Shown in pieces: positions 951-62,442 of a stretch of DNA of 64,000 bases (positions are counted from its first letter, which is position 1; each line of letters opens with the position of its first letter). The translations under genes were made by a program, and so were the position numbers. Source of the DNA: Octopus vulgaris (taxonomy: Eukaryota); NCBI GenBank assembly GCA_951406725.2, contig OX597822.1:55180001-55244000 (forward strand), read 5' to 3'. The notes under the pieces are model-generated. The model was not told the DNA's origin. It saw only the letters and a list, made by a program, of their open reading frames with translations, and did not search any database.

Positions 951-2217
<1,267 letters not shown>

Positions 2218-2362
2218 TATGTGCTGAAAGTGAAGCTGGACAGATGAGTAATTTCGTCTGTTGAAGAGAATGTGTCATTAGAAGTAACATCCAATAGGTT
2301 GTCAATGCACCGAAAGAAGAATGTATATCATTGAAAGGTTGTAGAAAAGACAATTAACTTAC

Positions 2363-2422
2363 AGAAAACTTTTTACATTTAGGATCCTCTTTTGAAGGTG
2401 TGGTACAACGGTCCATCAAGCT
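2363..2422 (-). CDS. TRPA1: TRPA1-like exon (SLMDRCTTPSKEDPKCKKFS); gene continues left of the window
   Basis: 60 nt, atctag| ... |gtaagt, phase 0 to 0; resembles TRPA1 VLLDFCMLHSTEDKSCRDYY. Confidence 0.85.
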
Positions 2423-2565
2423 CTAGATAGAAGCAGAGGTGCACGGTAAGATTAGAAATGCAGTTATTTTAAAATAGATTTAATTACGAAACTACTTTGC
2501 TCATTAAGGGTGTTCTATGTGGTTGTTAGATTTTTTTCAAAGCACACACTGCCGTTTCACACACA

Positions 2566-2634
<69 letters not shown>

Positions 2635-2654
2635 GATAATGAAGTTCAATATAG

Positions 2655-2762
2655 GTGCATAGTTCCAGGTTCAGTTCCACTGTGTGGCGTCTTGGGTAAG
2701 TGTCTTCTGCCTTGGCAAAGCCTTGTAAGTGGATTTGGTAGACGGAAAGTAAACAAAGGTGG

Positions 2763-2845
<83 letters not shown>

Positions 2846-3068
2846 TGTATGTGGTCGTATGTGTGTGTGTGTGTGTACTGCTTGACAACCGGTACTGGTG
2901 TGTTTACGTCTCGTAACTTAGCGGTTCGGCATTAGAGATCGATAAAATAAGTAGTAAACTTAAAAAGAAATAAGTCCTGGTGGTCAATCTGCTCGACGAA
3001 AACCCCCTCAAGGCAGTGCCCCAGCATGGCCGCAGTCAAATTACTGAAACAAGTAACAGATAAAAGAT
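2655..3068 (+). mobile_element. SINE family A, diverged
   Basis: ggttcagttccactg head, internal (TG)n, gaaacaagtaa tail. Confidence 0.7.
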
Positions 3069-4661
3069 ATCTCTATAAGGGGAGGTGACTATGATTTGTG
3101 TACTTGTAATTCTGGATATATGCTATTAGTGTTGACATGGAGTTTAGAAACAACTACCTTGGTCGTCAATTTGAGAAATATTTCATAGATACGTAACTAT
3201 ACAACTGTGAGGTTTTGTACATATTTGTTTATTGTCTTACTGATTTCGGACACTGGCCACTGGTCACACTATCGTACCGTTATCACAGATCTTTGTAGAA
3301 GAATATTATATTCGAAAGTATTTTATCTTATTATGTAGTTTCTCAGGTTCAATATAATTTGCATAGTTGGAACAAGACACCACAGACAAATAAACATGCA
3401 AGTCACTCCATGAGTTTTCTTCCATTAACTTCGACTATCGTGAGGTACACACATCTAGCTATTTCTATCCAAATATTATCAATAATGATAAATGGAAAAA
3501 TTAATTAATCAATTAATAATTAATAATTTTACCAAGTAGTTCGGTATGTTAAAAGAACCATTATCGGTAAACTTATACAAAAATCCTATAATTAAGAGCA
3601 TAATTATAATTAGGGTTCAGCAAAATTTGCTTCACCACATACCGAAATTTACAAATAGCAGTTAAAATAATATTCTACTACCATATGATATGCTCTATCC
3701 AAATATATATATTTATATGTTATTATGTATACATTAAATTCTTCATGGTAAATTAATCGATCAAATTGTTCATGAGCTTTGCAAATCAAAATACGCCTGC
3801 AAATGGCAGAAAGAACTCTTTACATGTACAAACTAGTTGCTCTCTTCAGCACGGTGACGTATAAGCAAGTATGTAATTGTTACATTGAAGCTAAGAGGAG
3901 TTACGTACCTGGGATAAAAATTGCCATAGCTCGCTAGTTTACTGGTTTTGTACTTATAAAACAAGACATGTTGACCTTTTGAAAAGATGCAATAAAGGAT
4001 TGTAAAACAGTGGCAGGACATAGGGATTCCTGTTATTTTTACAGGTGATGAATTTGTGGGTAGGAGTATAATCGACTACATCAAGCTGAATCTATATTTT
4101 ATCGATCCCGGAAAGACGAAAGTCAACGTAGAAATCGGCAAGATTTGAATTCAGAGTGTAATTAATTGGCCATAATTTATTCCCGTGAGTAATCTTGCCT
4201 GACGTTCTAAAGCTTTAACTAACCAAATACCTTTGTTATCAGTATTTCAGTAGATATTCAATGTCTCAACACTTACAATGTATAATGATTATTTGTGTCG
4301 GAGTCAATGTATAGTAATTTCTTGTTTCACAGTGTGGTTAAGATTCTGCTTGCAATAACGCATGTGCAAATGACATTTTGAATTAAAGATAAACTGGAGA
4401 ATCGGAACATGAAAACTTATACATAAATATAGGCACAGTACGCATTATTTGAACGGGATAAATTATATTTTCGTTGTGAGAACACAAGAAATATTTGTAA
4501 TCTGTAACGAGAACGCATCGCAATCATGCGAAATATCGCAACAGTTTATATTGTACTATCTTTTATAATATTTATAGTTATCTACAACTTTAGGTCATTT
4601 TGTTTTCAAACGAAACTGAGCTATAAATCATAAGAGAGAAATTCTGGAAATATATACCAAC

Positions 4662-4746
4662 CAAACAGACATCAGGCAGTTCTCTAACGAGTCCTACAAT
4701 CGTTTGACCGTAGATTTCTGAAGGTTGTGCCATAATCTCCTCCCAT
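4662..4746 (-). CDS. TRPA1: TRPA1-like exon, linker region (WEEIMAQPSEIYGQTIVGLVRELPDVCL)
   Basis: 85 nt, cttcag| ... |gttggt (weak donor), phase 2 to 0; aligns to the RW...LPE region of TRPA1. Confidence 0.82.
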
Positions 4747-5074
4747 CTGAAGAAGATAATATTAGATTGATTTTTACGGTAACATGATTGGTTGAAAATC
4801 ATCATATTTTCACAACTTATAAACAATGTAAACATATATTTGATAGTGCAAATTAATAATCATTTTAGCTATTCCCTCGGCAAGAACGCATAGATTTTTG
4901 TAGATAGACAACTACACCCCCTCTCTTTCTCTCTAACACCTTGAACTCTATACCAAATTATTTACAAACAAACTATATTTATTGAAAACTTTACGGGAAA
5001 ACTCCAGACATGTTCTACCCACCAAACAGAAGATAAATACAAACTGTTTTTACTTCAAATTTCAAATTTTTATT

Positions 5075-5117
5075 AACATTTGATAAGACGAAATTCATCA
5101 TCGAAACCGGTAATATT
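5075..5117 (+). ncRNA. Minimal type-I hammerhead ribozyme motif (U3-A8 core variant)
   Basis: aacat-TTGATAA-gacg aaattcat catc-GAAA-ccgg-TA-atatt; palindromic stem III ACCGGT; one mismatch each in stems I and II. Confidence 0.55.
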
Positions 5118-5194
5118 TTATATTTTCTATATATATATAAATTTTAAAAAATCATTTTATTAATTTCTTTCTAAATTAAAATGTGTTAAATTAT

Positions 5195-6315
5195 TTCTGT
5201 GCTGTTTCCACATCTATTTTCGGGAGCAACTGTTTTGTCGAAGGCGTATCTTGTTGTGAATTGCTTGAAATACGGAGTAGAAAAATGGCCGACAACGGAT
5301 GAAGGGTCGTTCTTTATGTTGCTTATCTTGTTTTCCATTTGTTTCTTTCGTTGTTCGAAAAAAAGTTCATATTCCATGTATTCGTATTTCGTATTTCATG
5401 TTGTTTATGTTTTGTGATGTCCTGTGCCCACATATGCGTATGTATATAGATATATATGTATGTACATATCTGTATATATATCATTTATATTATTATATGA
5501 TTGAACGCTACGCATCCATTTCCAAGTAAGCTTTATCTTAATTTTGATGCGACACTCATTCTGCTCTAATACTCTTTCGTTTCCTCTCTCTTCCTTTCTC
5601 TAATTCTTTTTATCTCCCCTTCTCCTCCTTTCGTTTTTTCTCTCTCATCCTTTCTCTAATTCTTTTCCTCTCCCCTTCGCCATTCTCTGTCTGTCCCTCT
5701 CTCTCCCTCACTCATCCTCCTTTGCTCTCTCGCTGCTCGCACATGACCATCGGCCACCTTTCTTTTCTTCCCTAACTTGAGTTTCTTTCCTTGTGATTCA
5801 GTTGCAGGGATCAGACGCATTCTTGTCTGTCTCCTGTTCAAGCTTGTTCCACCACGTTCGTCACCTCACCTCGTTTAGGCTTAGCAACCCTTCCTGTTTG
5901 TTTTCACTGTCCCGTTTTTGTTAGCAATTTTGACCCACTGCAAAATCTCAAATTTTATTTAATTTTCTCTGCGAGAGCAACTGTTTTGTCGAAGGCGTAT
6001 CTTGTCGTGAATTGCTCCACGAAATACGGAATAAAGCAGCCGACAATTCATGTTGCTTGTCTTGTTACTTGTCTTGTTTTCCATTTGATTCGTTCGTTGT
6101 TCGAACAAAAGTTCATATTCCATGTTTTCGTATTTCGCTTTTCATCCTGTTTTCGTATTTCTTGTTGTTTACGTTCTGTGACGTCCTGTGCCTACATATG
6201 CATATGTATATACATATCTATGTAAGTATGTACATATATGTATGTATATATACACATATATATATTATTTACATCATTATATGATAGAACGCCACGCATC
6301 CATTTCCAAATAAGT
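5195..6315 (+). repeat. Two diverged direct copies (~5195-5535 and ~5965-6315) of a repeat separated by a CT-rich stretch
   Basis: Shared gagcaactgttttgtcgaaggcgtatcttgt ... gaacgc.acgcatccatttccaa. Confidence 0.7.
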
Positions 6316-10340: not shown

Positions 10341-11003
10341 TGTTTGTTTCGAGACGCATAAGTTATAATGGTTATTGACAATTTTGTCTTTTTTTCGGCA
10401 TATTTGGCATTAGAATTTTTCTTTTGCCCTTATTTTGTAAATTATTTTAAAATTTAACCTTTAAAGGTATTTTTTGATATGCTGGCCATTGATAAAATAT
10501 TTTTTCCCGAAAAAATTTAACCTACATTAGTTATAAATTTAATAGTGTTCACTTCCGGATTCTCTCACTCTGTGAAAATTTCTAGTTCGAATCACACGTG
10601 TCTCGAGATGTGCCGAAGATTTTCTATTTTGGATATATTTGGGGTACTTAGGTCTGCTCTGGACTTAGTACTTGCTTTTTTCGTGGGTATGAGTAAGTAT
10701 TTCACTTATATCTCACGTATTTATCGCTGAAGAGGGGAAAATTCTTATGAATTAACCCCGAAATTGGGACCAATACGGTAATAACAGATTTTTTAGAAAT
10801 TTCTATCGGTTTGTTTTGAGACGCATAAATTATAATGGTGATTGACAATTTTGTCTTTTTTTCGGCATATTAGGCATTATAATTTTTCTTTTGCCCTTAT
10901 TTTGTAAATTATTTATAAATTTAACCTTTAAAGGTATTTTTTGATATGCTGGCCATTGATAAAAAATTTTTTCCCGGAAAAACTTTTATCTTACATTAGT
11001 TAT
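10341..11003 (+). repeat. ~468-bp unit with ~195-bp direct terminal repeat carrying a hammerhead (Penelope pLTR- or retrozyme-like)
   Basis: 10341-10535 repeated at ~10809-11003; hammerhead at 10721-10781 lies just before the second copy. Confidence 0.7.
10721..10781 (+). ncRNA. Minimal type-I hammerhead ribozyme motif
   Basis: ttatcg-CTGAAGA-gggg...cccc-GAAA-ttgggaccaa-TA-cggtaa; all three stems pair; predicted cleavage 3' of 10775. Confidence 0.75.
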
Positions 11004-11589: not shown

Positions 11590-11844
11590 GTGTGTGCGTG
11601 TGTGTTTGTGTTTATATATATATACAAAATGTAGAGGACTAACCACTAAAAGTGAACAGCTTATATGCTAAACATAGTTTCTAATGCAAAATATGCCGAA
11701 AAATTGGACATATTGTTCATTACCATATAATTTTTCACAAAACGTAGCGTGCGTATTGTGAAAAATTATATGGTAATGGACAATATGTCCAATTTTTCGG
11801 CATATTTGGCATTAGAAACTTTTTCGTTTGCCCTTATTTATAAG

Positions 11845-13777: not shown

Positions 13778-13937
13778 TCCCCGCATACAAGAAATTCCAA
13801 ACCAAAATAAATCACATACAGAAATGTGACACGCATCACTAAACAAAACATCCATAGACACCCACACACACATAACAATCTGAAGCAACAATCCACCACT
13901 CCCCCAGACCAGTCCCATACAACATCACAGACAGCTC

Positions 13938-14850
13938 ATGCAAACAAAACTGCAACCAACATTTTTTAACCCCAGACCAGAGACACCAGAACATAGGTTG
14001 GAACCTGGTGGTCAGGAAAAACCGAAGATAATTAACCTCTCAACTAAACCTCTGTCAAACACAAAGATAGACATCCTCTCAAAAGGGTTAAAATTCACCC
14101 CAACACCACGCAAAACCAACCAAAATGAAGTGAAGGACAGTATAATAGAATTCTGTAGAAAATTAAGACTCACAGAAACATTAACCAATTACAATACTGA
14201 AGATGACTCACTAGTCAAAAACAAAAGTGGACACATCCCCCACAAAGAAAGAAAAAAAAATCTTGATGAATTCTGTAACTACATTGAGAACTTTCCTTAC
14301 CACACCATGCATGAATAGACAGTTAACTCAAACTTTAGCACTATGCAATGGAAGGAACCAACAGAATTTCAAAATAATGAAGATATAACGATTAAGGAAG
14401 CAGATAAAGGAAGCGCAGTGGTATTATACTATGGAAATCTAGTAATCTCCATGCTGGATGACAGTCAACATTACGAAAAAATCATAAACTACACCCCGAA
14501 AAATTAATGTAAAGCCTGTTCTCACTAATTAAAACCCATGGAAAAGAACTGACGACCAAAGAAATTGACTTTTTAACAAACTTTAAATGTAAACCTAGCC
14601 TTTTCTACGGTCTACCAAAAATCCACAAAAGCCAGATTATAACTGAAACTATAAAAAAATCACCAAAGACGTACATACATACACCAAACCCAGGGGACAT
14701 AAAATTACGACCCATTATAGCTGGCCCAGCCTGTGAAACACACAGACTAAGTTTGTTTATGGACATCCTCCTGAAACCCTTCCTTAAACACATCAATAGC
14801 TATATCAGAGATGAGGTGGACACATAAAATCACCTCCCAAAAAAGTCAAG
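13938..14850 (+). mobile_element. Penelope-like element reverse transcriptase N-terminal remnant
   Basis: IINLS...LSKGLKFTPTP, IKEADKGSAVV, FYGLPKIHK and LRPIIAG...SYIRD motifs with stops and frameshifts. Confidence 0.88.
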
Positions 14851-15746: not shown

Positions 15747-15758
15747 TATATATATATA

Positions 15759-16243
<485 letters not shown>

Positions 16244-16626
16244 TATTATATATATTTAATACATACAAGGGTCAAAGATCCTTTCTGAGCCCTAGACTCA
16301 CGAGGCCAGTTTGCCGGATTCTGTGACATATACTCCCCACTGGACAGGACGTCGGTCCATTGTAGGATTACTCCTTTTTTTCTACCTGAGTGGACTGGAA
16401 CAACGTGAAATGAAGTGTTTTGTTCAAGAACAGCAAGGACCTCCCGGTCAACGAATCGAAGCCAGTCTTACAATTATGAGTGCAGCATCCTAACCAGTAA
16501 GACACGCACCTCTCTTTCTCTCTACACGCCTCACACACATACATACACACATACACACGTATATGCATACATTAAACATTGTATTATATTACATTATATT
16601 ATAATTATATTGCATTTGTTTCTTAC

Positions 16627-16815
16627 CTTTGATATCAGAAATTCGATGATGTGGCCGTGATTAAATAATGTAGCTCTATGAAGAGGCGTCATTTCTAAAA
16701 TGTCTTTCTGACGTAAAGCTTTCATGAAACTTTCCTCCTGGAGTTCTGACATCAACGAGACCATGTCTAAATTACCTTGAGCGCTAGCCAGATGAAGTGG
16801 ATTATAAAGGTCATC
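16627..16815 (-). CDS. TRPA1: TRPA1-like exon (DDLYNPLHLASAQGNLDMVSLMSELQEESFMKALRQKDILEMTPLHRATLFNHGHIIEFLISK), copy left of gap
   Basis: 189 nt, phase 0 to 0; LHRATLFNH resembles TRPA1 LHRASLFDH. Confidence 0.88.
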
Positions 16816-17025
16816 CTGAAGGAGACGAAAATCATTTTAATAATTTATACTACATCGTATTCTAGACTGCTTTTTTTTCTTTTGACTGATATATCTATTT
16901 TGATAAACTTTGGATGTAACCGAAAAAAATTCACTACTTCTGTTGTTTAATATACCATTTTTGCGGCGGCGGCGGCTACTGCTGCTGCTAATAGCAGCAG
17001 CAGCAGTAACAACAACAACAACAAG

Positions 17026-17076
<51 letters not shown>

Positions 17077-17113
17077 AAATAAATAAATAAAATAAATGTA
17101 ACAAACTCCTCAC

Positions 17114-17161
17114 CTGCTTCAAATCAATTCGTGATCCTGCTTCGAGACATACCCTCACAAC
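17114..17161 (-). CDS. TRPA1: TRPA1-like 48-nt exon (VVRVCLEAGSRIDLKQ), copy left of gap
   Basis: AG/GT bounded, phase 0 to 0; completes the ankyrin repeat begun in exon 22231-22328. Confidence 0.8.
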
Positions 17162-17414
17162 CTATAATCAAAATGGAATGTAATAAAAGGCATAATAAAT
17201 ATACAAATAAACGATGATGATATGGTTCTCATGATATTGTAGGGTAAGTAACTATGTTGCACAGTGTGGGCCAAAAGTCACACACAAAATAAGTGCAATA
17301 AGCTCCGGAATAGTCAAAAACATGCTTCGAATTTTCTAAAATAGAAAAGATAAACAAAATAATGATGAATACACATGAACCTGTACTTGATGAACAAAAT
17401 GAATAATAATAATG

Positions 17415-17507
<93 letters not shown>

Positions 17508-18152
17508 TAATCACTGGGTAATTTGCAAAAGCCTGGACTTGCTCCATGATAAAAACTGGTGGGAACACAAACCACTTCCAGTGCTTGAAAATGACCACAT
17601 CTCACTCCTCTGGAACTTCACCATTCAAACTGACAGAAAGATAGAGGCAAATATGCCAGACATCATATTGAAAGACTTCAGACAAAAATCATGCCTCCTC
17701 ATCGAGATGACTGTCCCAATTGATATAAACGTATCTGACAAGACCTACCAAAAACTGAGCAAGTATAAAGATCTTGAAATAGAAATTGACAAAATGTGGA
17801 ACCTCAAGACTAAAACACTGCTTGTTGTCATAGGTGCCCTAGCAATGATAGCAAAAGGGGCTGATTGCTACCTAGCTCAGATACCAGGAAACCCTAAAAT
17901 GGTAGAAATTCAAAAGATAGTGATCATGGGAACTGCCCATATCCTACGTAAAATACTGTCTATGTAATCTCAATTTTTAAACCAAGCTCATAATTTTCTT
18001 GTTTTCTTAAACATTCTCTAGAACAATACTATGTGAAAAACCAAATATATGACACCCTAGGCATAATACCAACATGAACTTCTAACTTGTTTCTTCAGGT
18101 CTCCGGGTGAGATTTGGAATCAACTTGTACAGATACAAAGCAAAAGTCAAAC

Positions 18153-18154
<2 letters not shown>
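17508..18154 (+). mobile_element. RLE-type (R4/Dong/NeSL-like) retrotransposon 3' end between (TAA)n tracts; duplicate at 20378-21024
   Basis: ORF 17539-17967 WNFTIQTDRKIEANMPDII...IEMTVP...KLSKYKDL...GTAHILRK (PD-(D/E)xK nuclease). Confidence 0.85.
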
Positions 18155-18224
<70 letters not shown>

Positions 18225-18229
18225 TGATG

Positions 18230-18306
<77 letters not shown>

Positions 18307-18537
18307 GTTAATTGACCCGACATAATTCTTAAAGGGAGAAGAAAATACTTGCAGACTAATAGTTATAGGTCTTTCTACTGATACAATATATTTGTATCAG
18401 TAGGAACACCTATGTAAAGAATTTGGTAAACTTAGTAAATATAAGGACCTGGAAACTGAAATACAAAAGATGTGGAAACTTAAAGTAAAACCTGTTCCTG
18501 TTATTGTAGGTGCACTAAGTATGATAAAAAAAACGAA

Positions 18538-18637: not shown

Positions 18638-18867
18638 ATATATATACTCTCTTACTTTTACTTGTTTCAGTCATTTGACTAAGGCTATGCTGGAGCACCG
18701 CCTTTAGACAAGCAAATCGACCCCAGGACTTATTCTATCGGTCTCATTTGCCTAACCGCTAGGTTACGGGGACGTAAACACACCAGCATCGGTTGTCAAG
18801 TGATGTTGGGGACAAACACAGACACATACATATACACACACATACATACATACATACATACATACAT

Positions 18868-18950
<83 letters not shown>

Positions 18951-19498
18951 TACGACGAGCTTCTTTCAGCTTCCGTCTACCAAATCCACTCTCAAGGCTT
19001 TGGTCAGCCCGAGGCTATAGTAGAAGACACTTGCCCAAGGTGCCACGCAGTGGGACTGAACCTGGATCCATGTGGCTGATAAGCAAGCTACTTACCACAC
19101 AGCCACTCCTACGCCTATTATATATATTTAATACATACAAGGGTCAAAGATCCTTTCTGAGCCCTAGACTCACGAGGCCAGTTTGCCGGATTCTGTGACA
19201 TATACTCCCCACTGGACAGGACGTCGGTCCATTGTAGGATTACTCCTTTTTTTCTACCTGAGTGGACTGGAACAACGTGAAATGAAGTGTTTTGTTCAAG
19301 AACAGCAAGGACCTCCCGGTCAACGAATCGAAGCCAGTCTTACAATTATGAGTGCAGCATCCTAACCAGTAAGACACGCACCTCTCTTTCTCTCTACACG
19401 CCTCACACACATACATACACACATACACACGTATATGCATACATTAAACATTGTATTATATTACATTATATTATAATTATATTGCATTTGTTTCTTAC

Positions 19499-19687
19499 CT
19501 TTGATATCAGAAATTCGATGATGTGGCCGTGATTAAATAATGTAGCTCTATGAAGAGGCGTCATTTCTAAAATGTCTTTCTGACGTAAAGCTTTCATGAA
19601 ACTTTCCTCCTGGAGTTCTGACATCAACGAGACCATGTCTAAATTACCTTGAGCGCTAGCCAGATGAAGTGGATTATAAAGGTCATC
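19499..19687 (-). CDS. TRPA1: TRPA1-like 189-nt exon (DDLYNPLHLASAQGNL...EMTPLHRATLFNHGHIIEFLISK), copy right of gap
   Basis: cttcag| ... |gtaaga, phase 0 to 0; identical to 16627-16815. Confidence 0.75.
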
Positions 19688-19896
19688 CTGAAGGAGACGA
19701 AAATCATTTTAATAATTTATACTACATCGTATTCTAGACTGCTTTTTTTTCTTTTGACTGATATATCTATTTTGATAAACTTTGGATGTAACCGAAAAAA
19801 TTCACTACTTCTGTTGTTTAATATACCATTTTTGCGGCGGCGGCGGCTACTGCTGCTGCTAATAGCAGCAGCAGCAGTAACAACAACAACAACAAG

Positions 19897-19947
<51 letters not shown>

Positions 19948-19984
19948 AAATAAATAAATAAAATAAATGTAACAAACTCCTCAC

Positions 19985-20032
19985 CTGCTTCAAATCAATT
20001 CGTGATCCTGCTTCGAGACATACCCTCACAAC
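19985..20032 (-). CDS. TRPA1: TRPA1-like 48-nt exon (VVRVCLEAGSRIDLKQ), copy right of gap
   Basis: ttatag| ... |gtgagg, phase 0 to 0; identical to 17114-17161. Confidence 0.75.
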
Positions 20033-20294
20033 CTATAATCAAAATGGAATGTAATAAAAGGCATAATAAATATACAAATAAACGATGATGATATGGTTCT
20101 CATGATATTGTAGGGTAAGTAACTATGTTGCACAGTGTGGGCCAAAAGTCACACACAAAATAAGTGCAATAAGCTCCGGAATAGTCAAAAACATGCTTCG
20201 AATTTTCTAAAATAGAAAAGATAAACAAAATAATGATGAATACACATGAACCTGTACTTGATGAACAAAATGAATAATAATAATGATAATAATA

Positions 20295-20377
<83 letters not shown>

Positions 20378-21022
20378 TAATCACTGGGTAATTTGCAAAA
20401 GCCTGGACTTGCTCCATGATAAAAACTGGTGGGAACACAAACCACTTCCAGTGCTTGAAAATGACCACATCTCACTCCTCTGGAACTTCACCATTCAAAC
20501 TGACAGAAAGATAGAGGCAAATATGCCAGACATCATATTGAAAGACTTCAGACAAAAATCATGCCTCCTCATCGAGATGACTGTCCCAATTGATATAAAC
20601 GTATCTGACAAGACCTACCAAAAACTGAGCAAGTATAAAGATCTTGAAATAGAAATTGACAAAATGTGGAACCTCAAGACTAAAACACTGCTTGTTGTCA
20701 TAGGTGCCCTAGCAATGATAGCAAAAGGGGCTGATTGCTACCTAGCTCAGATACCAGGAAACCCTAAAATGGTAGAAATTCAAAAGATAGTGATCATGGG
20801 AACTGCCCATATCCTACGTAAAATACTGTCTATGTAATCTCAATTTTTAAACCAAGCTCATAATTTTCTTGTTTTCTTAAACATTCTCTAGAACAATACT
20901 ATGTGAAAAACCAAATATATGACACCCTAGGCATAATACCAACATGAACTTCTAACTTGTTTCTTCAGGTCTCCGGGTGAGATTTGGAATCAACTTGTAC
21001 AGATACAAAGCAAAAGTCAAAC

Positions 21023-21097
<75 letters not shown>

Positions 21098-21108
21098 TGA
21101 TAATAATA

Positions 21109-21177
<69 letters not shown>

Positions 21178-21179
21178 GT

Positions 21180-21680
21180 TAATTGACCCGACATAATTCT
21201 TAAAGGGAGAAGAAAATACTTGCAGACTAATAGTTATAGGTCTTTCTACTGATACAATATATTTGTATCAGTAGGAACACCTATGTAAAGAATTTGGTAA
21301 ACTTAGTAAATATAAGGACCTGGAAACTGAAATACAAAAGATGTGGAAACTTAAAGTAAAACCTGTTCCTGTTATTGTAGGTGCACTAAGTATGATAAAA
21401 AAAACGAATGTCAGAAACATTTAGACAACATCCCAGGAGAACCATATCTCACAGAAATCCAAAAGATTGTGCTGACAAGTACTGCTCACATCCTAAATAA
21501 AACCCTATCAGTTTAAATGTTTATGGCGTATTTTTCTACCGTCCTCACCAATTCCGCTCACCAAGCTTTCAATTATATTTCAACATCTCTTAAGCTTCGC
21601 TTGCCCTAGGGCGCTGGGTGTCTGCCGTCAAGTGACTGCATCAAATATGCAGATTAAAAGTATAAAACGTAATATAAATA
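21180..21680 (+). mobile_element. Second RLE-type retrotransposon 3' fragment
   Basis: KLSKYKDLETEIQKMWKLKVKPVPVIVGALSMI...TAHIL. Confidence 0.7.
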
Positions 21681-22409: not shown

Positions 22410-24392
22410 TATAAGTGTGTGCACGGATGGAGTTCCAGCTGCGATGGCTGAAAATGAAGGATTTATTGCACAGCTTAAAAGAGTAAGCAAAGAACCGAGT
22501 GTACTGATTTCTTTTCATTGTATTTTACATCAGCAAAATTTATTTTAAGTGACACTTTGCAGAAGGTTATAAGTATTGTTAACTATATTCAAGCAACTGC
22601 CCTGAAGCATTGTCAACTTCTCAACATGCTGATGATGGATGACGAAATAATTAATTAATGTAGATTTGGCTTATCATTCAAATGTACGTTGGTTGTCACA
22701 AGGGAAAGAATTGGTCAAAACATTGTAATTTATCAGATCCAAATTTTTACAGAGATGTTGCATTTTTATGCCAAAGCAAAACGAGTTAAACATTTCGTTG
22801 CTAAGCAAAAATAAATGTGTTTCTGATATGTGGAAAAAAATTTGGGTATTTAGAAACAAATTGTCGTTTATCAAGTTTCTTTTGGCTCAATCAAAACTTT
22901 CAGAAAAACAGCTTACGAAGGCAATGAGTGAAAATGAAGAAGATATCTATGAATCTTTTGAAGAATACGAGTCAGTTTTAGACTCATTAATAGAAGAATA
23001 TAATAAAAGATTCAATGATTTTGAAAAACATAACATCATTCTGAAACTTGCTCTTCAGCCTCACTTAGTTGATGCATCAGAGGCTCCCGAAGAGTTACAA
23101 ATGTAACTTATGGAAATGTCTGAAGATAATATCCTGAAATCTCTGTTTGACATGAAGGAAAATCCCATTGAAATTTGGAAAAATGCGGTAGAATATCCTT
23201 GTCTCCGTGAGCTTGCACGCCGATTAATTTCCTGCTTTTCTTCAACGTACTGTTGTGAATGCACATTCTCGTACTTGACGCAAATCAAGAAGTCTCTGAG
23301 AATGGAATTGGCAGATGAGCATTTGGAGGACCAATTAAAACTAAGAACCACTATGTTAGAGCCTGATATGAAAATGTTTTCTAAAAAAAAAAAAAAGAAG
23401 CAAAATCAAAGAAGTCATTAATTTATATAAAAAATACTTACTTGCCTAAATTAAATATTTGGAAATGTTATATTCTCGATGTTAATAAGCTATCCTTTTT
23501 TTTAAAAATAAGATTATGATTCATTTACTTGTAGAGGCACAATGGCCCAGTGGTTAGAGCAGCGGACTCGCGGTCGGGGGATCGCGGTTTCGATTTCCAG
23601 ACCGGGCGTTGTGTGTGTTTATTGAGCGAAAATACCTAAAGCTCCACGAGACTCCGGCAGGGGTATGGGGTGGTGACGACCCCTGTTGTACTCTTTCAAA
23701 CCCAACTTTCTCTCACTCTCTCTTCTTGTTTCTTGAGTAACGCTGCGATAGACTGGCGTCTCGTCCAGCTGGAGGGAACACATACGCCATAGAAACCGGG
23801 CCCATGAGCCTGGTTAGGCTTGAAAAAGGCGCATAAATAAAAGTAAAATAATTCATTTACTTATTACTTGTATACATTGTGCCTGTTTACTTGAATAAAA
23901 TATTTGAAAAGTCATGCTTTCGATTTCTACACACGTGTCTTTCTTTTATTAGATTACTAATAAATTACTTAGGGGATAAAATTGTTTGTTCCTTCTCGAG
24001 CCATGCCTGGCTCATAGGACCGGTTTCCCGGTTTCCTTGGCGTATAGGTTCCCCACCTGGACGGGACGCCGGTCCGTCGCAGGTGAGCTGCAAGAGGAAA
24101 GAGTGAGAGAAAGTTGTGGCGAAAGAGTCAGCAGAAGTTTGCAATTATCTTCTGCCGGAGCCGCGTGGAGCTTAGGTGTTTCGCTCATAAACACACACAT
24201 CACCCGGTCTGAGATTCGAACCCGCGATCCCTCGACCGCGAGCCCACTGCACTAACCACTAGACCATGTGCCTCCACAGGGGATAAAATAACTAAAAAAA
24301 GAAAAAGAAAAAGAATTTGTTCAATGCGGCCTCTACGAGGGATGATGAATTGTAGGGTGGCCTTCATGCACAAAAAGGTTCCCTATCGCTGC
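22410..24392 (+). mobile_element. hAT (Buster/SPIN/GTF2IRD2-like) transposon remnant with nested SINEs
   Basis: CTDG, FHCILHQ, VRWLSQG, FSSTYCCECTFS..IK, QRSH*; putative terminus ggttccctatcgctg near 24390. Confidence 0.85.
23533..24278. mobile_element. Two SINE family C-related copies in opposite orientation (23533-23835 +, 23986-24278 -)
   Basis: tRNA-like head gaggcacaatggcccagtggttag...ggtttcgattt. Confidence 0.75.
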
Positions 24393-27743: not shown

Positions 27744-27778
27744 CTAGGAAAAGAAAAATATGAACAACACTTTAATAC

Positions 27779-27880
<102 letters not shown>

Positions 27881-28621
27881 TGAGAATGTTTGTCTGTATG
27901 TCTGCCTGCATGAATCCCTAAAACTTGAGAACTACACAACCAATTTCATTCAAATTTTACACATGCCTTACTTAGGGTCCATGTAGTGTCATGGGCAAAA
28001 AATGTTTAACTTCTTGCTTAGAGCGAGCCCCACAGCAATATTATATCTTCTCCACTATTTCAGTATTACGTGTTAAAAGTGTAACAAAAACTTCTCTCTA
28101 TTATAATGTCAGATGCTTTCACTTTAACAGTTTCACTTCAATACTGAAACTATAAAAGTGAAACTATTATATAAGAGGGATGAACTGTTAGTGGACATCC
28201 ATTTTGCTAGGAGAAGATCCGCTATGGTCTTACCACTAACAAAGGAATGGTAAGACCATAGTGGATCTTCTTCTAGCATAATGGATGTCCACTTATAAGT
28301 CATCCCTCTTATATGTATTTAATATAATTTTTTCTGAAACTTCAGACTTTTCAATATGCTATACCACTGGTTTTAAATTGATATTAATCAAATTAATATT
28401 CAATTTTTCATCCTTATTATTTTAAATTTAAATTTACATGTATATATATATATATATATATACAAATAAGAAAATGGAGAAACAAATTCATTTCGTTCAT
28501 CAACTTACGGATATTACAATTTCACATTATTTATTAATTACACAAATAGGAACATCAAAATCAAACAAAACAATATAAATCAATATGTAATATAATAATA
28601 AAAATAATACAAATAAACTGT

Positions 28622-28752
28622 TCCTTACAGCTGTTTCAGCCTATGGTCAAGAGTCAATTCAACTTATATTGCCTATAGATGTCAGTGTATTATGTTTTAG
28701 GCATTAAAAATTATACTTGTATCTTAAAAAAACCAAAGGCCTCGTCAGAGGA
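28622..28752 (-). ncRNA. Type-I hammerhead motif with long stem II insertion, sense to TRPA1 pre-mRNA
   Basis: tcct-CTGACGA-ggcctttgg...ccataggct-GAAA-cagctg-TA-agga; palindromic stem III ACAGCTGT; GUA triplet. Confidence 0.7.
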
Positions 28753-28845
28753 TATAATTAACTTGAAAAGTATAATAATAATATTGATATACAAAATATG
28801 CTTCACTTATCCAATATAAACAAATAAATAAGACAAATATCCAAA

Positions 28846-28896
<51 letters not shown>

Positions 28897-29264
28897 AACA
28901 TATATATACATATAAAAAATATACAAATATACATACTTATACATACATAGGCAAATCGTACATACTATTCACATGCGCAAAATACATAATGAACAACATT
29001 GAACAATATATTAGATTACATTGGTTATATCATGCGCCGTATAGTCAAGTAAATGCATTCTAATGTATATATACTACCAGGTTTAACAGTACCAACAGTA
29101 TTATTGTTTTAACGATAATACTAAACAGAAAATACGCACTATATTCATGTATACTAACATAACAAAAATTCACGAAACAAGGTACGAAGTATAAATATTC
29201 ACATTATCTAGATTATGTTTGTATGATTAATATATTCATACGCAAATATTTTGTTTGTGCATAT

Positions 29265-29323
<59 letters not shown>

Positions 29324-29588
29324 TATGTGTGTATGTGTGTGAATATTTATACTTCGTACCTTGTTTCGTGAATTCTTGTTATGTTAGTATACATGAATAT
29401 AGTGCGTATTTTCTGTTTAGTATTATCGTTAAAACAATAATACTGTTGGTACTGTTGGAGGCCCCAATCAAAACAGGGGACCCGAAATGATAAGGTTGAG
29501 AAACGCTGTTATAGATTATGCCTAACCGAAAACGATCACAGCCACATCGTCCAAACAGACCGGGTGAAACCGGACTTAGCTGCTAGTA

Positions 29589-29621
<33 letters not shown>

Positions 29622-30238
29622 ATTTAATAAACACAGTGTATATGTTTATGAGCTACTCATAGTTTCATGCAATGAAAACAACTTGGACTGCATTTTATAA
29701 CACACCTGGTGCCTTCGCACAATTCTCAGACATATGATTGCGTAAAGACATCAGACATGTTATAAAATACTGAGCTGTTTTCATTACATGAAACTGTTAG
29801 TAGCTCATGTATTTATTAATTAATATTTATCTCTTACCAGATGGAGTACGTTTTTTTGTTGATCTGATCGTCACAGTACAGTATACCACACACACACACA
29901 CACACACACAGAGATACACACACATACACACACACATAATGATAAATCACGTGTGTAAGAACAAAGAATCGTAGCTCTGAATATCGTTGAAATAGAGAAA
30001 TAGAGTAGGATATATGATAGAAACTTGGAACATTAAGTGACAATACAATTAAGTTTCCTGGCAAGCCACGAATACTATTTCACACAACACTCGATGAACA
30101 ATGACAGACGTTGACTACCGAGCAGAAATCGGAAAACTATATACCCGGCGCTTGCCGGAAAACTCCGAGTACTGTGAACGTTCGTTAAATGAAATTTTAT
30201 GAAGAAACTTGGACAAGGATGTTATTATTGAAATATCA

Positions 30239-30280
<42 letters not shown>

Positions 30281-30306
30281 ATATGTGACAATTATTCGGT
30301 AGCCAT

Positions 30307-30367
30307 GATAAAACTCCGAGTTTCGTATGCCGAGGTGGAAATCCACGCCGCCATCTCTTCAGTTATC
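30307..30367 (-). ncRNA. Hammerhead motif, left arm of fold-back 30276-30485
   Basis: gataa-CTGAAGA-gatggcggcgtgg attt ccacctcggcatac-GAAA-ctcggag-TT-ttatc. Confidence 0.7.
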
Positions 30368-30394
30368 CGGCCATAGCATTTTTTCGATGGCCGA

Positions 30395-30454
30395 ATAACT
30401 GAAGAGATGGCGGCGTGGATTTCCACCTCAGCATCCGAAAATCAGAGTTTTATC
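30395..30454 (+). ncRNA. Hammerhead motif, right arm of fold-back 30276-30485
   Basis: ataa-CTGAAGA-gatgg...catcc-GAAA-atcagag-TT-ttat; one stem III mismatch. Confidence 0.6.
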
Positions 30455-31181
30455 ATGGCTACCGAAAAATTATCACATATTACATTTCCAGATAAATTCT
30501 TCTATTTACATATCGAGGTCTCTTTCATTCGTTTGCTGTCTTACCATTTTTATCAATATATATATACAATAGTGTGGTTTTTTTTAGCCGTTTTGACTCA
30601 TATTTCTAGCAATACTATCTTGTACCCTGATTATAAATTTCTATATATATATATATGTATATATATAAATTAGAAAAAACCCACCTTTTATCAATTCAAT
30701 AATGAAAAATTAAATTATACCATTTAGAAAAATTACATATTATAGAAAGATTGAATATAAGATAAAACATATAACAATGATTAAGTAATGTGCAAAATAA
30801 TATATATATATATATAATATGTGTATGTAATGTATGATTGTATATATGTACGTTTGTATTTATGTATGTGTTATTTATTTGTTGAGTAAAACAATTGCCT
30901 ATTTTAAATTCTTACTCTACAGATTCCTTACTTTCCTTACCGGTGTAGACGCACAGTTCAATGCGATTCTGGAGCAATTTCAATTCTATATAAAGACATG
31001 TTTTAGCAGGATGATGGTAAAAGCGAACTGTGGGAAATTTCGTTTCGAGTTAGTTCTGTAGCAACATCTAGATAGTTAGATGGAGAAATATTTCAACGAA
31101 TTCGACAAAAGCAGCAATGGGAACAATAACAGAGGCAGTAACACCAACATATGAAGCTCGAAAAAAAAAACTTATTCTTAC

Positions 31182-34255: not shown

Positions 34256-34694
34256 CAAAGTGAGATAGGGGTTGTGAATGTAATAACATTTATCCAATAT
34301 ACTGCCAGTAAAGTACACAGAAAGGCTAATACATGAATTCTAAGAATTGCAATGCAATTAATGCATTTATTGTATTATATGGGCGAAGGTAAAATGTTTT
34401 ACCTCAAATTCATAATAGAAAATAAGAAAATGGAGGAATAGATTTCTGTCAATCATCAACTACTAGATAATACTAATTCATATAATTTATTAACTAATTA
34501 TTTAGGAACATCCAGATCAAACAGAATAATACAAATTAAAACAGATGGAAGGTTTTCCACCATGGTACTGTTTTATTCTGTATTATTCTGTTTGATCTGG
34601 ATGTTCCTAAATAATTAGTTAATAAATTATATGAATTAGTATTATCTAGTAGTTGATGATTGATAGAAATCTATTCCTCCTTTTTCTTATTTTG

Positions 34695-34725
<31 letters not shown>

Positions 34726-35057: not shown

Positions 35058-37820
35058 CATGATGATGGCCGTCCACTCGTGACCGAAGAAGACCATTGCC
35101 GACCTTCAGGAACATTGTGCGCTCTAGGACTAACTTATATTTTGCATTTGCGGCTCCGTTGGTGGCTAATGAGCCCTGCTCTTGACAAGCATACACGACT
35201 GCAAACATTGCAGACCAAGCTTTCCCCATTCACTATACGAGCCGTGCGCTTTCGCGCAGCTCGCTTAAGTTCTTCATGCTGGATACGTGCTCTCTCAAAA
35301 GTATCGATGCCCTCCTTAACCTGCTTCCTCTATCTGTGGCGATGACAGCCATTGATCTCCTGCATATCAAAAGCCTTTAACGAGGACTTGACACAGTCCT
35401 TAAATCGTAGCCTTGGATTCTGCTGGAGTCTCCTTCCATTCACAAGTTCTCCATAGAGCATCTGCTTAGGAATCCTTCTATCCTCCATTCTAATAAGGTG
35501 TCCAGTCCAACGCAACCGGTGTTTGTGTACCATCGCCTCAATACTCAAGATATCAGCTGTCCTCAGGATCTGTGTGTCTGGAATTTTTGAGGTCCAGCCA
35601 ACATTGAGAATGTGTCTGAGACATCTCTGATGAAAACGTTCAAGGACCCTTACCTGACGTTTGTACAGAGTCCATGTCTCACATGAGTAGAGAAGCGATG
35701 TCAGTACACAAGCACGGTACACAGCAACTTTTGTCTCCTTGCGATGCCATGTTGGGACCAGACACGAGACTGAAGAGACCGGAAGGAATTAGTTGCTCTC
35801 TGCAACCTGAAAGATATTTCCTCATCCAGGGAGCAAGAACGGCTGAGTGTGCTGCCCAGGTAGACAAACTTGTCTACTACCTTCAGAATTGTTCCTTCAA
35901 CCAAGATAGCTGGTTCTATATATGGATTTCCTGGTGCAGGCTGGAACATTACAACAGTCTTGTCCAGGCTAATGCTGAGTCCAAATGCCCTGCAAGAAGC
36001 AGAAATGCAATTCATGAGTATTTGCATGTCATCCACTGTATGAGTGACTAAGTCACAGTCATCTGCATAAAGGAGGTCACGAATAATAGACTGGGAAACC
36101 TTTGAATTGGCAGCAAATCAGCGAAGATTAAAGAGGCGGCCAGAAGATCGATATCTGACATATATTCCCAGAGAGCTAACCTTAGCAAAAGCATGAGTAA
36201 AAGCAGCAGCAAAGTACAAAGAAAAGAGAGTTGGGGCAAGGATGTCACCCTGCTTGACACCATTCTCTACAGGAATGGGTCCCGCCATGGCACCACCAAC
36301 ATTGACCCAAGCCTCCATCCCATCATGAAATGATTCAATTATAGATACAAAGTGATCCGGACATCCCAAGTTTGCCAAGTATTTTCCATAGAAGGGCCCT
36401 ATTTACAGTATCAAAGGCCTTAGTTAAATCAATGAATACCTGGACAAGATCCATGTTCTGCTCATAGCACTTCTCCTGCATCTGTCTTGCTGTGAAAATC
36501 ATATCCATTGTCCCTCTACCAGATCGGAAGCCACATTGAGATTCAGATAGGACATCATTTACGAGACACCCATTCAGACGGGTAAGAATAATATTTGCCA
36601 GAACCTTGCCAGCAGCTGATAGTAGAGCAATACCTCTGTAGTTACCACACATTGTTCTGGCTCTTTTTCCTTTATATAGAGGAAGAATAACTGCATCCTT
36701 CCAGTCCTTAGGGATTGCACCATTCCCTCCAGACTGCACTAATAAGTTCATGAAGGGACTGTGTGATGCAATTACCACCAAATCGCAAGACCTCAGCACA
36801 AATTCCATCCTTTCCAGGTGCCCTACCAAGATTCAATTTACTTATTGATGTCATTACTTCACGTATTGATGGCGAGGAGTCTAAGGAGTCAATGATAGGT
36901 CTTTGTTTCATAGTATCAATCACTATTTCATCCACAACTGACTCATGGTTTAGGAGTTCAGAGAAGTGTTCGATCCAGCGACCTGTGATTTCCATGTTTG
37001 CCAGTCTGTTCCAACCCTGGCATTAAAATCACCCAGTAGAATGACTTTTTCAGAATTGGGGATTTTTCTAAGTATGGCTCTCAGCTGGGTATAAAAGATT
37101 ATTTTATCTTCATCACAGCTAGTCAAAGTAGGTACATAGGCACTTATTAGAGTAGCAAACCGCTTACCTTTCAAGTGCAACCGAAGGGTCATTATTCGTT
37201 CATTTATAGGAACAGGGAGCTCTTCCAACTTCTTCAGGATATCAGATCGGACTGCAAAACCAACACCAGCCTCTCTGCGCTCCTCCTTCTGCCTTCATTT
37301 CCCAAAAAGGTGTATCCGCCTCCTACTTCCTCAAGCTGACCATCACCTTCTATATGAGTCTCTGAGAGTGCAGCTATATCAATTTTATAACGGTTCAGCT
37401 CACGAGCAACAAGTGCAGTGCGTCTTTCAGGCCTGCAATCACTCCTGTTGTCCAACAGAGTACGCACATTCCAACATGAAATGTTTAAGTTCCGTCCAGA
37501 TTTTATAGATAAACGACTCTTTGTTTTTCGAGCGCAGGGTGGACATCCGTTAGTCGCGCTAAACTGACCAGATATGGAAAGACAGGCAATTTTTGGTTCA
37601 CCTTTTCTAGAACCTCCCCGGTCTCCAGGTGAGCAGTGCCCTCTCCAAATGGAGCTGCTCAGACACCCATGCAGCAACCGAATCCTACCGCTGTCTTGGG
37701 CGACAAGGAGACGACTTTATATCTAGCATGGGCCGCCTACGTGCAGGTCGCTGACTATATGCTTCCAACCCGTCAGTTCTGCATGCTTCACCACCTTCCC
37801 ATCGCCGCAGGACTTCCGAA
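35058..37820 (-). mobile_element. RTE-clade LINE, internally deleted and frameshifted
   Basis: APE WNVRTLLD...IDIAALSET and LLGDFNARVG; RT ESQCGFRSGRGT, FIDLTKAFD, GVKQGDILAP, LYADD; HRLRWTGHLIRM. Confidence 0.93.
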
Positions 37821-38311
37821 TAAAAAAAAAAGAAATACTAAAAATGAAGAAAATGTATACTAAAAATAAGATAGATACATATAGAATAAAAAAAAAAAAG
37901 AGGTCGGCAATGCCTGTGCAGAGTTTTAGGTCCAATAAGGCTTGCACAACACCTCACAGACCCTCTCCACTCTATTGACATTATCCAGAGACAAGCCGGA
38001 GCAAGATGTCTGGTGCCAATATGAGTCGCAGGTTCAGGGATGTGGGAGCGCCGTGATCTCTAGCACAAACCAAAGGTCCCCAAAATGTTCAATGCCATTC
38101 CCTGCATATCTGGTTTTATATCAGAGTGACCTTCTCCTAGAGACGTGCTTTAACAAAAGCTGAGGGACGCCTCACTCCCAGTGGTCTTTCAGCACGCCGG
38201 ACACCACCCCGGAATTTCAACGTACCCGTGCTACATACATACATACATACATACATACATACATACACATATTTACATACATATATGTATATATGTATAC
38301 ACTCACATTTT

Positions 38312-38405
<94 letters not shown>

Positions 38406-38675
38406 ATGTATGTATATTATTATAAAATGTGAGTGTATACATATATACATATACATATATGTATGTAAATATGTGTATGTATGTATGTATGTATGTAGCA
38501 CGGGTACGTTGAAATTCCGGGGTGGTGTCCGGCGTGCTGAAATATGAATACGACAATGATTTTCAGGTGTTTTAACACCCGGCGCTCTAAGAGAGTCGTT
38601 TCATCCGTGTTAAATCGCAGCCGTCGGCGAAGTAGCAAAGCACATGCATTGCGTGTGTTCGTGTGTTCGATAATG

Positions 38676-56292: not shown

Positions 56293-56341
<49 letters not shown>

Positions 56342-56428
56342 GTATAAGGATGAAAAGGAACACAGGAGTTGACATATATGAAAAAACAAGTGAAGATAGA
56401 AAATGCTAAAATAATTTTATAAAGAACA

Positions 56429-56471
56429 TTTCAGTACCGGTTTCAGTCATTTGAGACCATTTCAACTGTAA
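56429..56471 (-). ncRNA. Hammerhead motif, left arm of fold-back 56374-56690 (A9 mutated)
   Basis: cag-TTGAAAT-ggtc tcaaat gact-GAAA-ccgg-TA-ctg. Confidence 0.5.
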
Positions 56472-56591
56472 CGATTAAATAATTAAATTTAGAAAAATTA
56501 AAAGAAAATGCCACTTATATTTGAACACTATACAAATATTCTTTTAAAAAAATCTTTTCTTTTAATTTTTCTAAATTTAATTATTTAATCG

Positions 56592-56634
56592 TTACAGTTG
56601 AAAAGGTCTCAAATGACTGAAACCGGTACTGAAA
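56592..56634 (+). ncRNA. Hammerhead motif, right arm of fold-back 56374-56690 (U3-A8 variant)
   Basis: ttacag-TTGAAAA-ggtc tcaaat gact-GAAA-ccgg-TA-ctgaaa. Confidence 0.65.
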
Positions 56635-56679
56635 TGTTCTTTATAAAATTATTTTAGCATTTTCTATCTTGACTTGTTT

Positions 56680-56770
<91 letters not shown>

Positions 56771-59430: not shown

Positions 59431-59688
59431 TAAGATTCAGTTGAATTAGATACTTGAATTGAGGCACCTTGCTAGGTCGGTATAATCCACACAACCAAAC
59501 AATATCAAGAATCCGTGCAGGGATGATTGTAAATGCCGTGTGTAGCAGACAACGCAACGCAGCTAAGTGAAGATATCCGCTGTTGGTAATTCAGACATGT
59601 ACTTTTATAAAGGTACTTTCTATAGCATTTCTGAAGTGCAGATTTCAAATTAGGTGAACATAATTTAAATGAGTAACAAAGTGTCAAT

Positions 59689-59772
59689 TCATTACGCTCG
59701 TTTCAAGCGGCTCATTTAATTGATTAATGAAAACATCACATCAATTTGAAAGAAACCGTTCTCGTCAGATGA
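59689..59772 (-). ncRNA. Hammerhead motif, left arm of fold-back 59682-60068
   Basis: tcat-CTGACGA-gaacgg...ccgctt-GAAA-cgagcg-TA-atga. Confidence 0.65.
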
Positions 59773-59980
59773 CCGCATAGGACTTCAAATATAAAGGATA
59801 TAACCACTTTTTAACATATTTACACCATATTTACAACATATTTAAATTGTTTCTTGTGTCATATATGTGGTAGATTCTGCCACAGATATGACACAAGAAA
59901 TAATGTAAATATTTTTAGTTCCATTATTGATGTAAATATGCTTAAAAGTGATTATATCCTTTATATCCGAAGACTATGCG

Positions 59981-60067
59981 GTCATCTGACAAAAACCGTT
60001 TCTTTAAAATTGATGTGACGTTTTCATTAACCGATTAAAGGAGCCGCTTGAAACGGCCGTAATTGAC
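59981..60067 (+). ncRNA. Hammerhead motif, right arm of fold-back 59682-60068 (G8 to A)
   Basis: gtcat-CTGACAA-...ccgctt-GAAA-cggccg-TA-attgac; palindromic ACGGCCGT. Confidence 0.5.
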
Positions 60068-60108
60068 ATCTGTACATCTTTGTTACATATATATATATGT
60101 TTGTGAAC

Positions 60109-61346: not shown

Positions 61347-61775
61347 CTTCTATCTATAAATGCTCTAATATCTACACAGACTTGGCTTTTTATCTTATTA
61401 CGCACAAAATTCTATATATATATAAGAAATATTAAATTTCTAAATCTCTCGTAGAGACATGTACGGTGGTGGGGCGATAGAATGGTTGTATACTGTCAAT
61501 CTAACAAGAACGTGACAGTAGGGGGTACACCACCACGTATAGCCCTAGAGCTATCGAACGCCTCCTGATGGCTTTGACACATTTTTCCCTGTCTCCTTAT
61601 ATACATTTACGAAGGGGAGCCGGCAGCCGGGGGTGTTTGTCTCCCTTCGTAAATGTATATAAGGACACAGGGAAAAATGTGTCAAAGCCATCAGGAGGCG
61701 TTCGATGCTTCCTAGGCTATACAGCGGTGGTGTACCCCCTACTGTCACGTTCTTGTTATATTGACAGTATACAAC

Positions 61776-61825
<50 letters not shown>

Positions 61826-61920
61826 ATAAAACGGTAAGATAACAAAAGAAAGAAAGAGACCTCAATATTATGTAAATAGAGGAAATTTATCTATACAATA
61901 TGTTACATTACTGGTAGTCA

Positions 61921-61982
61921 AGATAAAACTCTGAGTTTTCAGATGCCGAAGTGGAAATCCACACATATCTCTTCGGTTATCT
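61921..61982 (-). ncRNA. Hammerhead motif, left arm of palindrome 61889-62382
   Basis: agataa-CCGAAGA-gatatgtgtgg attt ccac...catct-GAAAA-ctcagag-TT-ttatct; same family as 30307. Confidence 0.5.
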
Positions 61983-62286
61983 GGCTATTTGAAAACGTTA
62001 TGAAAAATACCGTTAAAAATGAAGGGAAATTAGTCCTGTTATAACTCTGCTTTGCCTGCGTATTATACATCGACTCGCATTTTTCGTCATAAAAATTATA
62101 TAAAAATACATAAAAATATATAAAAATATATAAAAATATATATTTTTATATATTTTTATGTATTTTTATATAATTTTTATGACGAAAAATGCGAGCGATG
62201 TATAAGTACGCAGGCAAAGCAGAGTTATAACAGAGTAATTTCCCTTCATTTTTAACGGTATTTTTTCATAACGTTTTCAAATAGCC

Positions 62287-62349
62287 AGATAACCGAAGAG
62301 ATGGTGTTGTGGATTTCCACTTCGGCATCTGAAACTCAGAGTTTTATCT
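62287..62349 (+). ncRNA. Hammerhead motif, right arm of palindrome 61889-62382 (CCGAAGA variant)
   Basis: agataa-CCGAAGA-gatgg...catct-GAAA-ctcagag-TT-ttatct. Confidence 0.6.
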
Positions 62350-62378
62350 TGACTACCGAGTAATGTAACATATTGTAT

Positions 62379-62442
<64 letters not shown>

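Follow-up and report, generated by a model that had tools for sequence, protein, structure and literature searches.

A TRPA1 intron of Octopus vulgaris contains a fold-back sequence with a hammerhead ribozyme motif on each arm, and the question is whether this element is a new RNA switch, a mobile unit in its own right or the remains of an insertion. Within the window (the whole stretch of DNA analysed, 64,000 nt), it consists of two 5'-truncated, hammerhead-bearing repeat ends in head-to-head orientation, flanked by (TA)n tracts and with a tail at only one end. It is very probably a dead stub left by a Penelope-like element (PLE), with a surviving ribozyme that is predicted to be masked. It is most likely an ordinary insertion by-product rather than a new RNA switch; the kind of feature is known, and this family member had not been flagged before. 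A preliminary description of the locus had itself named an inverted-pLTR by-product of PLE insertion as the alternative, and this fits the arms, the tail and the varied junctions. The features of the locus, and of a second copy at 62 kb, are as follows.

27744..31181, minus strand: Octopus TRPA1 host intron, between the exons for approximately amino acids 100-160 and 160-197 of P0001
30242..30277, no strand: (TA)n tract at the left end, the likely insertion target
30276..30374, minus strand: left arm, a short 5'-truncated element end without a tail, 3' end outward
30300..30373, minus strand: intact type I hammerhead motif, sense-oriented with respect to the TRPA1 pre-mRNA (core 30362-30356, GAAA 30324-30321)
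30372..30374, no strand: CAT, a 3-nt microhomology at the head-to-head junction (from loose ends at 30372 and 30374 and alignment to the longer-armed copy)
30375..30386, plus strand: spacer of 12 nt, formed by additional upstream sequence from the right arm, the longer one, and aligning with the arm of the 62-kb copy
30387..30485, plus strand: right arm, the second 5'-truncated copy, 3' end outward
30388..30461, plus strand: type I hammerhead motif, damaged (core 30399-30405, predicted cut 30449/30450)
30486..30555, plus strand: one-sided 70-nt tail, similar to that of the 62-kb copy (family depth stays high as far as about 30566)
30556..30565, no strand: (TA)5 tract at the right end (loose ends at 30566 open with (TA)n in 4/4 runs)
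61824..62386: second family member, with arms of 250 nt (61885-62386), a left-hand tail (61824 to about 61890) and the core CCGAAGA

The inverted arms of about 100 bp around a short loop that were first described are real. The arms (30276-30374 and 30387-30485) are 99 nt long, flank a spacer of 12 nt and are complementary at 92 of 99 positions, the other seven being mismatched. The full palindrome has a fold energy of -153 kcal/mol (z = -23.6), and none of 200 shuffles was equally stable. The (TA)n tract reported at the left edge is present, and the arms occupy the extent originally assigned to the element (30276..30485), which stops short on the right, where the one-sided tail runs on to about 30555. 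The placement in a TRPA1 intron is borne out by a protein match, the neighbouring exon being 91–92% identical to Octopus TRPA1 proteins, and by gene mapping with tblastn, which places the gene on the minus strand. A 98-codon open frame at 30377-30670 was rejected as a gene, as it has no Pfam match and needs a copy-specific change at 30467.

In the left arm, the motif CTGAAGA...GAAA...GTT reads from the minus strand, in the right arm from the plus strand, and both arms keep the letters of core C3-A9, G12-A14, U16.1-H17 and G10.1-C11.1. A strict type I pattern matches the left arm and none of 20,000 shuffled arms; over the real window it has two matches, against none in 30 shuffled windows. The left-arm hammerhead, with a predicted cut between 30312 and 30311, has a stem I of 5+6 bp around a single bulge, a long, imperfect stem II with G10.1-C11.1 and a short, near-palindromic stem III. 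No extra base separates 9 from 10.1, G10.1 directly following A9, and it is the 3' strand of stem II that has the bulge. The motif of the right arm does not match the strict pattern: position 30441, at which about 98% of the aligned contig depth has another letter, breaks the pair 15.2-16.2, and position 30394 breaks a pair of stem I. The hammerhead fold energy is -18.9 kcal/mol for the left arm versus -3.9 kcal/mol for the right. The palindromic 15.2-16.2 and loop 3 are predicted to be able to dimerise in the left arm and to have lost this capacity in the right: the left stem III self-pairs at -9.7 kcal/mol, like dimeric PLE hammerheads, versus -0.4 kcal/mol on the right. Since the right arm fails the pattern and folds weakly, the intact motif is, judging from the letters and predicted folds, only on the host pre-mRNA strand. 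The idea that either strand encodes a ribozyme therefore stands for the motif letters, which are in both arms; an intact ribozyme is found in the left arm only.

The left arm differs from the family majority at one position, and the right arm shows four clear differences and two of CpG type. Among the positions listed, the only difference in the left-arm motif is at 30326, a bulged base of stem II. In the right arm (30387-30485), there are six departures at which this arm is the odd or decayed one; all six are to A and two of the six are at CpG, probably by chance. The core 30399-30405 has no variant at 5% or more among the positions listed. This invariance was not taken to indicate selection, since the majority of non-CpG positions vary just as little. 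There were no Rfam matches at the gathering threshold across the window, and hammerhead families were absent from the 24 matches over the element at E values of up to 10. Rfam matches to miRNAs scored under the gathering cut-offs and reflect the hairpin only.

The copy at 62 kb is likewise bounded by (TA)n at each end, and its AT-rich centre is a different one. Each of the two copies has one arm that meets (TA)n directly and another that extends for 60–70 nt before reaching a (TA)n of its own, the tail being one-sided in 2/2 window copies. Aligned to each other, the two tails share 59 of 74 columns, and they are found at opposite ends (right in the 30-kb copy, left in the 62-kb copy). (TA)n flanks both ends of both copies, and a TSD is unreadable within TA repeats. 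The core of the 62-kb copy is CCGAAGA (U4C) in both arms, and there is no variant at 10% among the contigs aligned there, for which reason a large subfamily seems, from these alignments, to carry this core. U4C is described as reducing hammerhead activity in vitro (PMC3088659), and, by eye, 6 bp can also form between the core of the 62-kb copy and the 3' strand of stem II. The derivation of CTGAAGA from CCGAAGA by CpG decay was considered and rejected, with no 5% variant at the 30-kb copy and no 10% variant at the 62-kb copy; going by these variant counts, the two cores look like two subfamilies.

The layout is that of EN+ PLE insertions: a 5'-truncated repeat inverted head to head, a tail at one end and a type I hammerhead in the terminal repeat. 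Published sources are cited here for the passages that bear on such features. Inverted pLTRs with a tail on one of them and microhomology junctions have been described, the head-to-head arrangement being the most frequent (PMC3846280). The same PLE layout is reported in a second study, in which (TA)n is the preferred target of some PLE clades and the Naiads are described as lacking canonical hammerheads (PMC8557442). The octopus element is like these insertions in its head-to-head 5'-truncated ends, its tail on one inverted arm, its terminal-repeat hammerhead, its microhomology at the 5' junction and a microsatellite target that hides the TSD. Unlike those described in the same passages, it has no coding body between the arms, and its tail is 60–70 nt long rather than the 30–40 bp described for PLEs. 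Variable 5' truncation is visible in the depth gradient detailed below, in the varied joints and in the arm lengths of 99 versus 250 nt. PLE membership rests on this layout because no RT or GIY-YIG frame attached to the family was found in the window; a search for a long reading frame beside either window copy was also negative. A Neptune-type parent element is only a guess, because microsatellite bias is tied to Neptune elements as a hypothesis (PMC8557442). O. vulgaris is reported to have 31 recently active Penelope-like families (PMC13282606).

The hammerheads have close counterparts in the minimal hammerheads of metazoan PLEs (PMC4209133). They are alike in being of type I, with a long helix II, G10.1-C11.1 and a small palindromic helix III, and in the presence of two motifs close together on opposite strands. 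They differ from the published examples in the absence of the extra base between 9 and 10.1, described as typical of metazoan PLE hammerheads, in a longer helix I (5+6 bp), in cores that start 37 nt apart and in the core CCGAAGA (U4C) of a large subfamily. A recurring two-strand ribozyme cassette had been presented at the outset as not being a standard annotation, but opposite-strand pairs of minimal hammerheads 100–700 bp apart are already described (PMC4209133). A literature search returned no title on this octopus family, which may be included in the supplements of PMC4209133 and PMC13282606, and a combined query on opposite-strand hammerheads in an inverted-repeat retrotransposon hairpin returned nothing on that combination. 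Metazoan non-LTR retrozymes (bioRxiv 10.64898/2026.07.22.740005) are similarly protein-less, with a type I hammerhead and a relationship to PLEs; as described in the relevant part of that preprint, they are head-to-tail tandems in which two ribozymes pair per transcript, whereas the octopus copies are inverted, with one per strand. Within the window, only inverted copies were found, and no head-to-tail tandem of hammerhead units.

The structure can be accounted for by known features of PLE copying. An Anolis PLE is reported to cleave and extend both strands in vitro from two internal RT starts; the tail is attributed to the two start sites, and ribozyme cleavage is described as dispensable for insertion (PMC11167929). 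Going by published PLE work, the PLE RT-endonuclease would have cut both strands of the (TA)n target and reverse transcription would have been primed from each cut. RT starts at two internal RNA sites about 60–70 nt apart would give a tail to one end and leave the other without. Synthesis of each cDNA would then have halted just upstream of the ribozyme, and the two would have been joined at the 3-nt microhomology, the bases 30372-30374 being common to both arms.

A MITE or fold-back DNA transposon with long TIRs, inserted at TA and moving as a unit with the hammerhead as a passenger, would also have inverted arms, a small size, a TA context and about 10^4 copies, and palindromic DNA transposons do exist, as in the frog Harbinger (PMC5625713). 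It is nonetheless very improbable here, as one end is 70 nt longer in both window copies, the arms measure 99 versus 250 nt, depth falls steadily inward, the junctions vary and a hammerhead is unlikely to have arisen by chance, given its absence from the 20,000 shuffles. The symmetric TIRs and fixed interior of a MITE are not seen in the two window copies, which differ in tail, centre and joints.

The abundance of the family was assessed by aligning contigs of 6 different public runs (of 24) to the two window copies. The four DNA runs represent four organism codes, and 1,973 to 5,967 contig pieces per run fit the element. Relative to the unique flank, the summed depth of the outer arm is about 34,000x in X1 and 46,000x in X6; summed contig depth is not copy number, and only the order of magnitude, 10^4, is taken from it. 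On this estimate, the family would comprise roughly ten thousand or more stubs. In X1, depth declines inward over mirrored bins (1.0, 0.71, 0.50, 0.35), and at the 62-kb copy, in the space of about 85 nt upstream of the ribozyme, it drops from 542,000 to 41,000 and then to 336. Two places, 30494 (listed for X4 and X6) and 30566 (4/4 runs), have ends that are followed by (TA)n. Between 45 and 75 contigs per run depart from the reference at 30372, and between 31 and 65 at 30374; by eye, they run into upstream sequence like the longer arm of the 62-kb copy. A metagenome scan with a 30-nt arm pattern gave no matches.

The preliminary description favoured a compact two-strand ribozyme cassette, recurring with a shared loop. 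This would be the case if a stub subfamily had been re-amplified as a whole hairpin with this loop, which is about as improbable as a DNA transposon. In many copies the turn does lie close to the 5' edge of stem I, and in many bridging pieces it is no more than about 13 nt from the junction of the 30-kb copy, so that turn points may cluster; a minor subfamily with one common junction may exist. The 62-kb copy, however, is centred differently, and the right-arm ribozyme is damaged. Junctions were compared in 32 listed pieces (there being 17,079 others), 15 of which bridge the centre by at least 31 letters on each side. All 15 listed bridging pieces have between 7 and 27 other letters, 14 of the 15 also have between 2 and 13 gap letters, and all 15 are near single-copy depth; the contigs from an identical junction that had been amplified would be short and may lie outside the listed pieces. 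Each of the 15 joints listed (of 57) is represented by one contig per run. One bridging contig (X1 record 5) has identical spacing and no gaps, but it carries 19 other letters and is at single-copy depth. The depth of the spacer in X1 (165,000) is also close to that of the inner arm edges (174,000–176,000), but this is because 31–75 contigs per run branch off into native upstream sequence at 30372 or 30374. The search for copies sharing the loop and junction therefore returned varied junctions near single-copy depth among the pieces listed, and the 'loop' is, by its alignment, native upstream sequence of the longer arm and not a separate part. Six of the 15 listed joints fall close to the cut site, but this seeming cluster was discounted, as it lies at the edge of detection.

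A dead PLE stub remains the preferred reading, and its ribozyme can be considered in the light of transcript folding. As first proposed, and as the arm layout bears out, a transcript contains a hammerhead motif together with its own antisense, and the suggested masking of the ribozyme by the hairpin is backed by predicted energies: the hairpin is predicted to beat the hammerhead fold by 106 kcal/mol on the minus strand and 108 kcal/mol on the plus strand. The antisense arm is transcribed first on either strand because the 3' ends face outward. In growing transcripts (six lengths per strand, 12 in total, folded at equilibrium rather than kinetically), the pairing of the sense arm to the upstream arm is 0.93–1.0 on the minus strand and 0.87–0.96 on the plus strand. 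With the antisense arm first and a gap of about 106 kcal/mol, folding order is therefore predicted to favour masking, and the model leaves little room for a switch between cleavage and masking. The earlier suggestion that cleavage might depend on folding order does not hold on these predictions, the antisense arm always coming first and capturing the emerging sense arm. Least probable of all is the co-option of the insertion for TRPA1 regulation, switching between ribozyme cleavage and hairpin masking: the intact motif is indeed on the pre-mRNA strand, in the arm with one difference from the family majority rather than four clear and two CpG-type differences, but the comparison of one with six is based on few differences, the antisense arm is transcribed before the sense arm, the energy gap is about 106 kcal/mol, single short-stem-III PLE hammerheads are described as not cleaving alone (PMC4209133), and the PAc ribozyme is reported to have required its protein (PMC11167929).

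In the TRPA1 pre-mRNA, the antisense arm of the PLE stub would be made first and capture the sense arm, forming a predicted dsRNA of about 100 bp, which would depart with the intron and would be a likely ADAR substrate. Intronic dsRNA formation is probably the only activity of such a dead stub. Two presumed RNA runs, X11 and X23, contain contigs of the family, for which locus, strand and cut site are not assignable. The higher depth over the tail in these runs recurs in DNA runs, and its onset is not at the cut site. The Harbinger repeat of Xenopus tropicalis (PMC5625713) is comparable in being self-complementary over about 200 nt and forming tight dsRNA without a neighbour. There it is presented as an ADAR substrate and as a DNA transposon whose consensus is palindromic, whereas the octopus palindrome would arise anew at each insertion. 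In the cross-species survey of the same study, octopus had the strongest hyper-editing signal and was among the species with the highest shares of dsRNA-forming loci. It is conceivable, if rather unlikely, that PLE fold-back stubs are a main source of the unusually plentiful dsRNA and hyper-edited RNA of octopus, the antisense-first order disarming the ribozyme so that stubs are tolerated in introns from which solo sense copies are purged. If PLE stubs do supply much of the dsRNA, part of the non-coding editing of cephalopods would be explained by the way in which a retroelement inserts. The single locus matters little, being one of about 10^4 or more stubs whose layout is already in the literature; the many junctions and two 3' ends of the family could serve to map where PLE copying starts and stops.

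Short-range palindromes occupy about 3.1 kb of the 64-kb window. Those at 56330-56690 and 59657-60101 are unrelated to this family and have outward hammerhead-like cores; the former also has a one-sided extension of about 30 nt and (TA)n on both sides. In a relaxed hammerhead scan, 7 of 11 palindromes had no match, and two-mismatch matches alone are weak because the scan also yields inward-facing ones. No canonical hammerhead match was seen in the palindromes at 28169-28314, 29085-29456, 29648-29808, 34415-34697, 38187-38542 and 61477-61783, and (TA)n adjoins those at 34415 and 61477 on one side only. A separate, clean type I hammerhead motif (10719-10785, plus strand) lies upstream of a repeat ending in (TA)n near 11003, and the palindrome at 11676-11820 is built from the downstream part of this repeat. 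Broken frames at 13884-14827 (plus strand) contain motifs that we take to resemble PLE reverse transcriptases; they have no Pfam match and no visible link to the hairpin family. Those at 35330-37716 (minus strand) presumably resemble a LINE endonuclease and reverse transcriptase, and a hAT transposase remnant (Pfam PF05699) is present at 22729-23421 (plus strand). The segments 15750-18537 and 18638-21408 form a 2.8-kb direct duplication, 99.2% identical, on either side of a 100-N gap; this duplication repeats two TRPA1 exons and is likely to be an assembly artefact.
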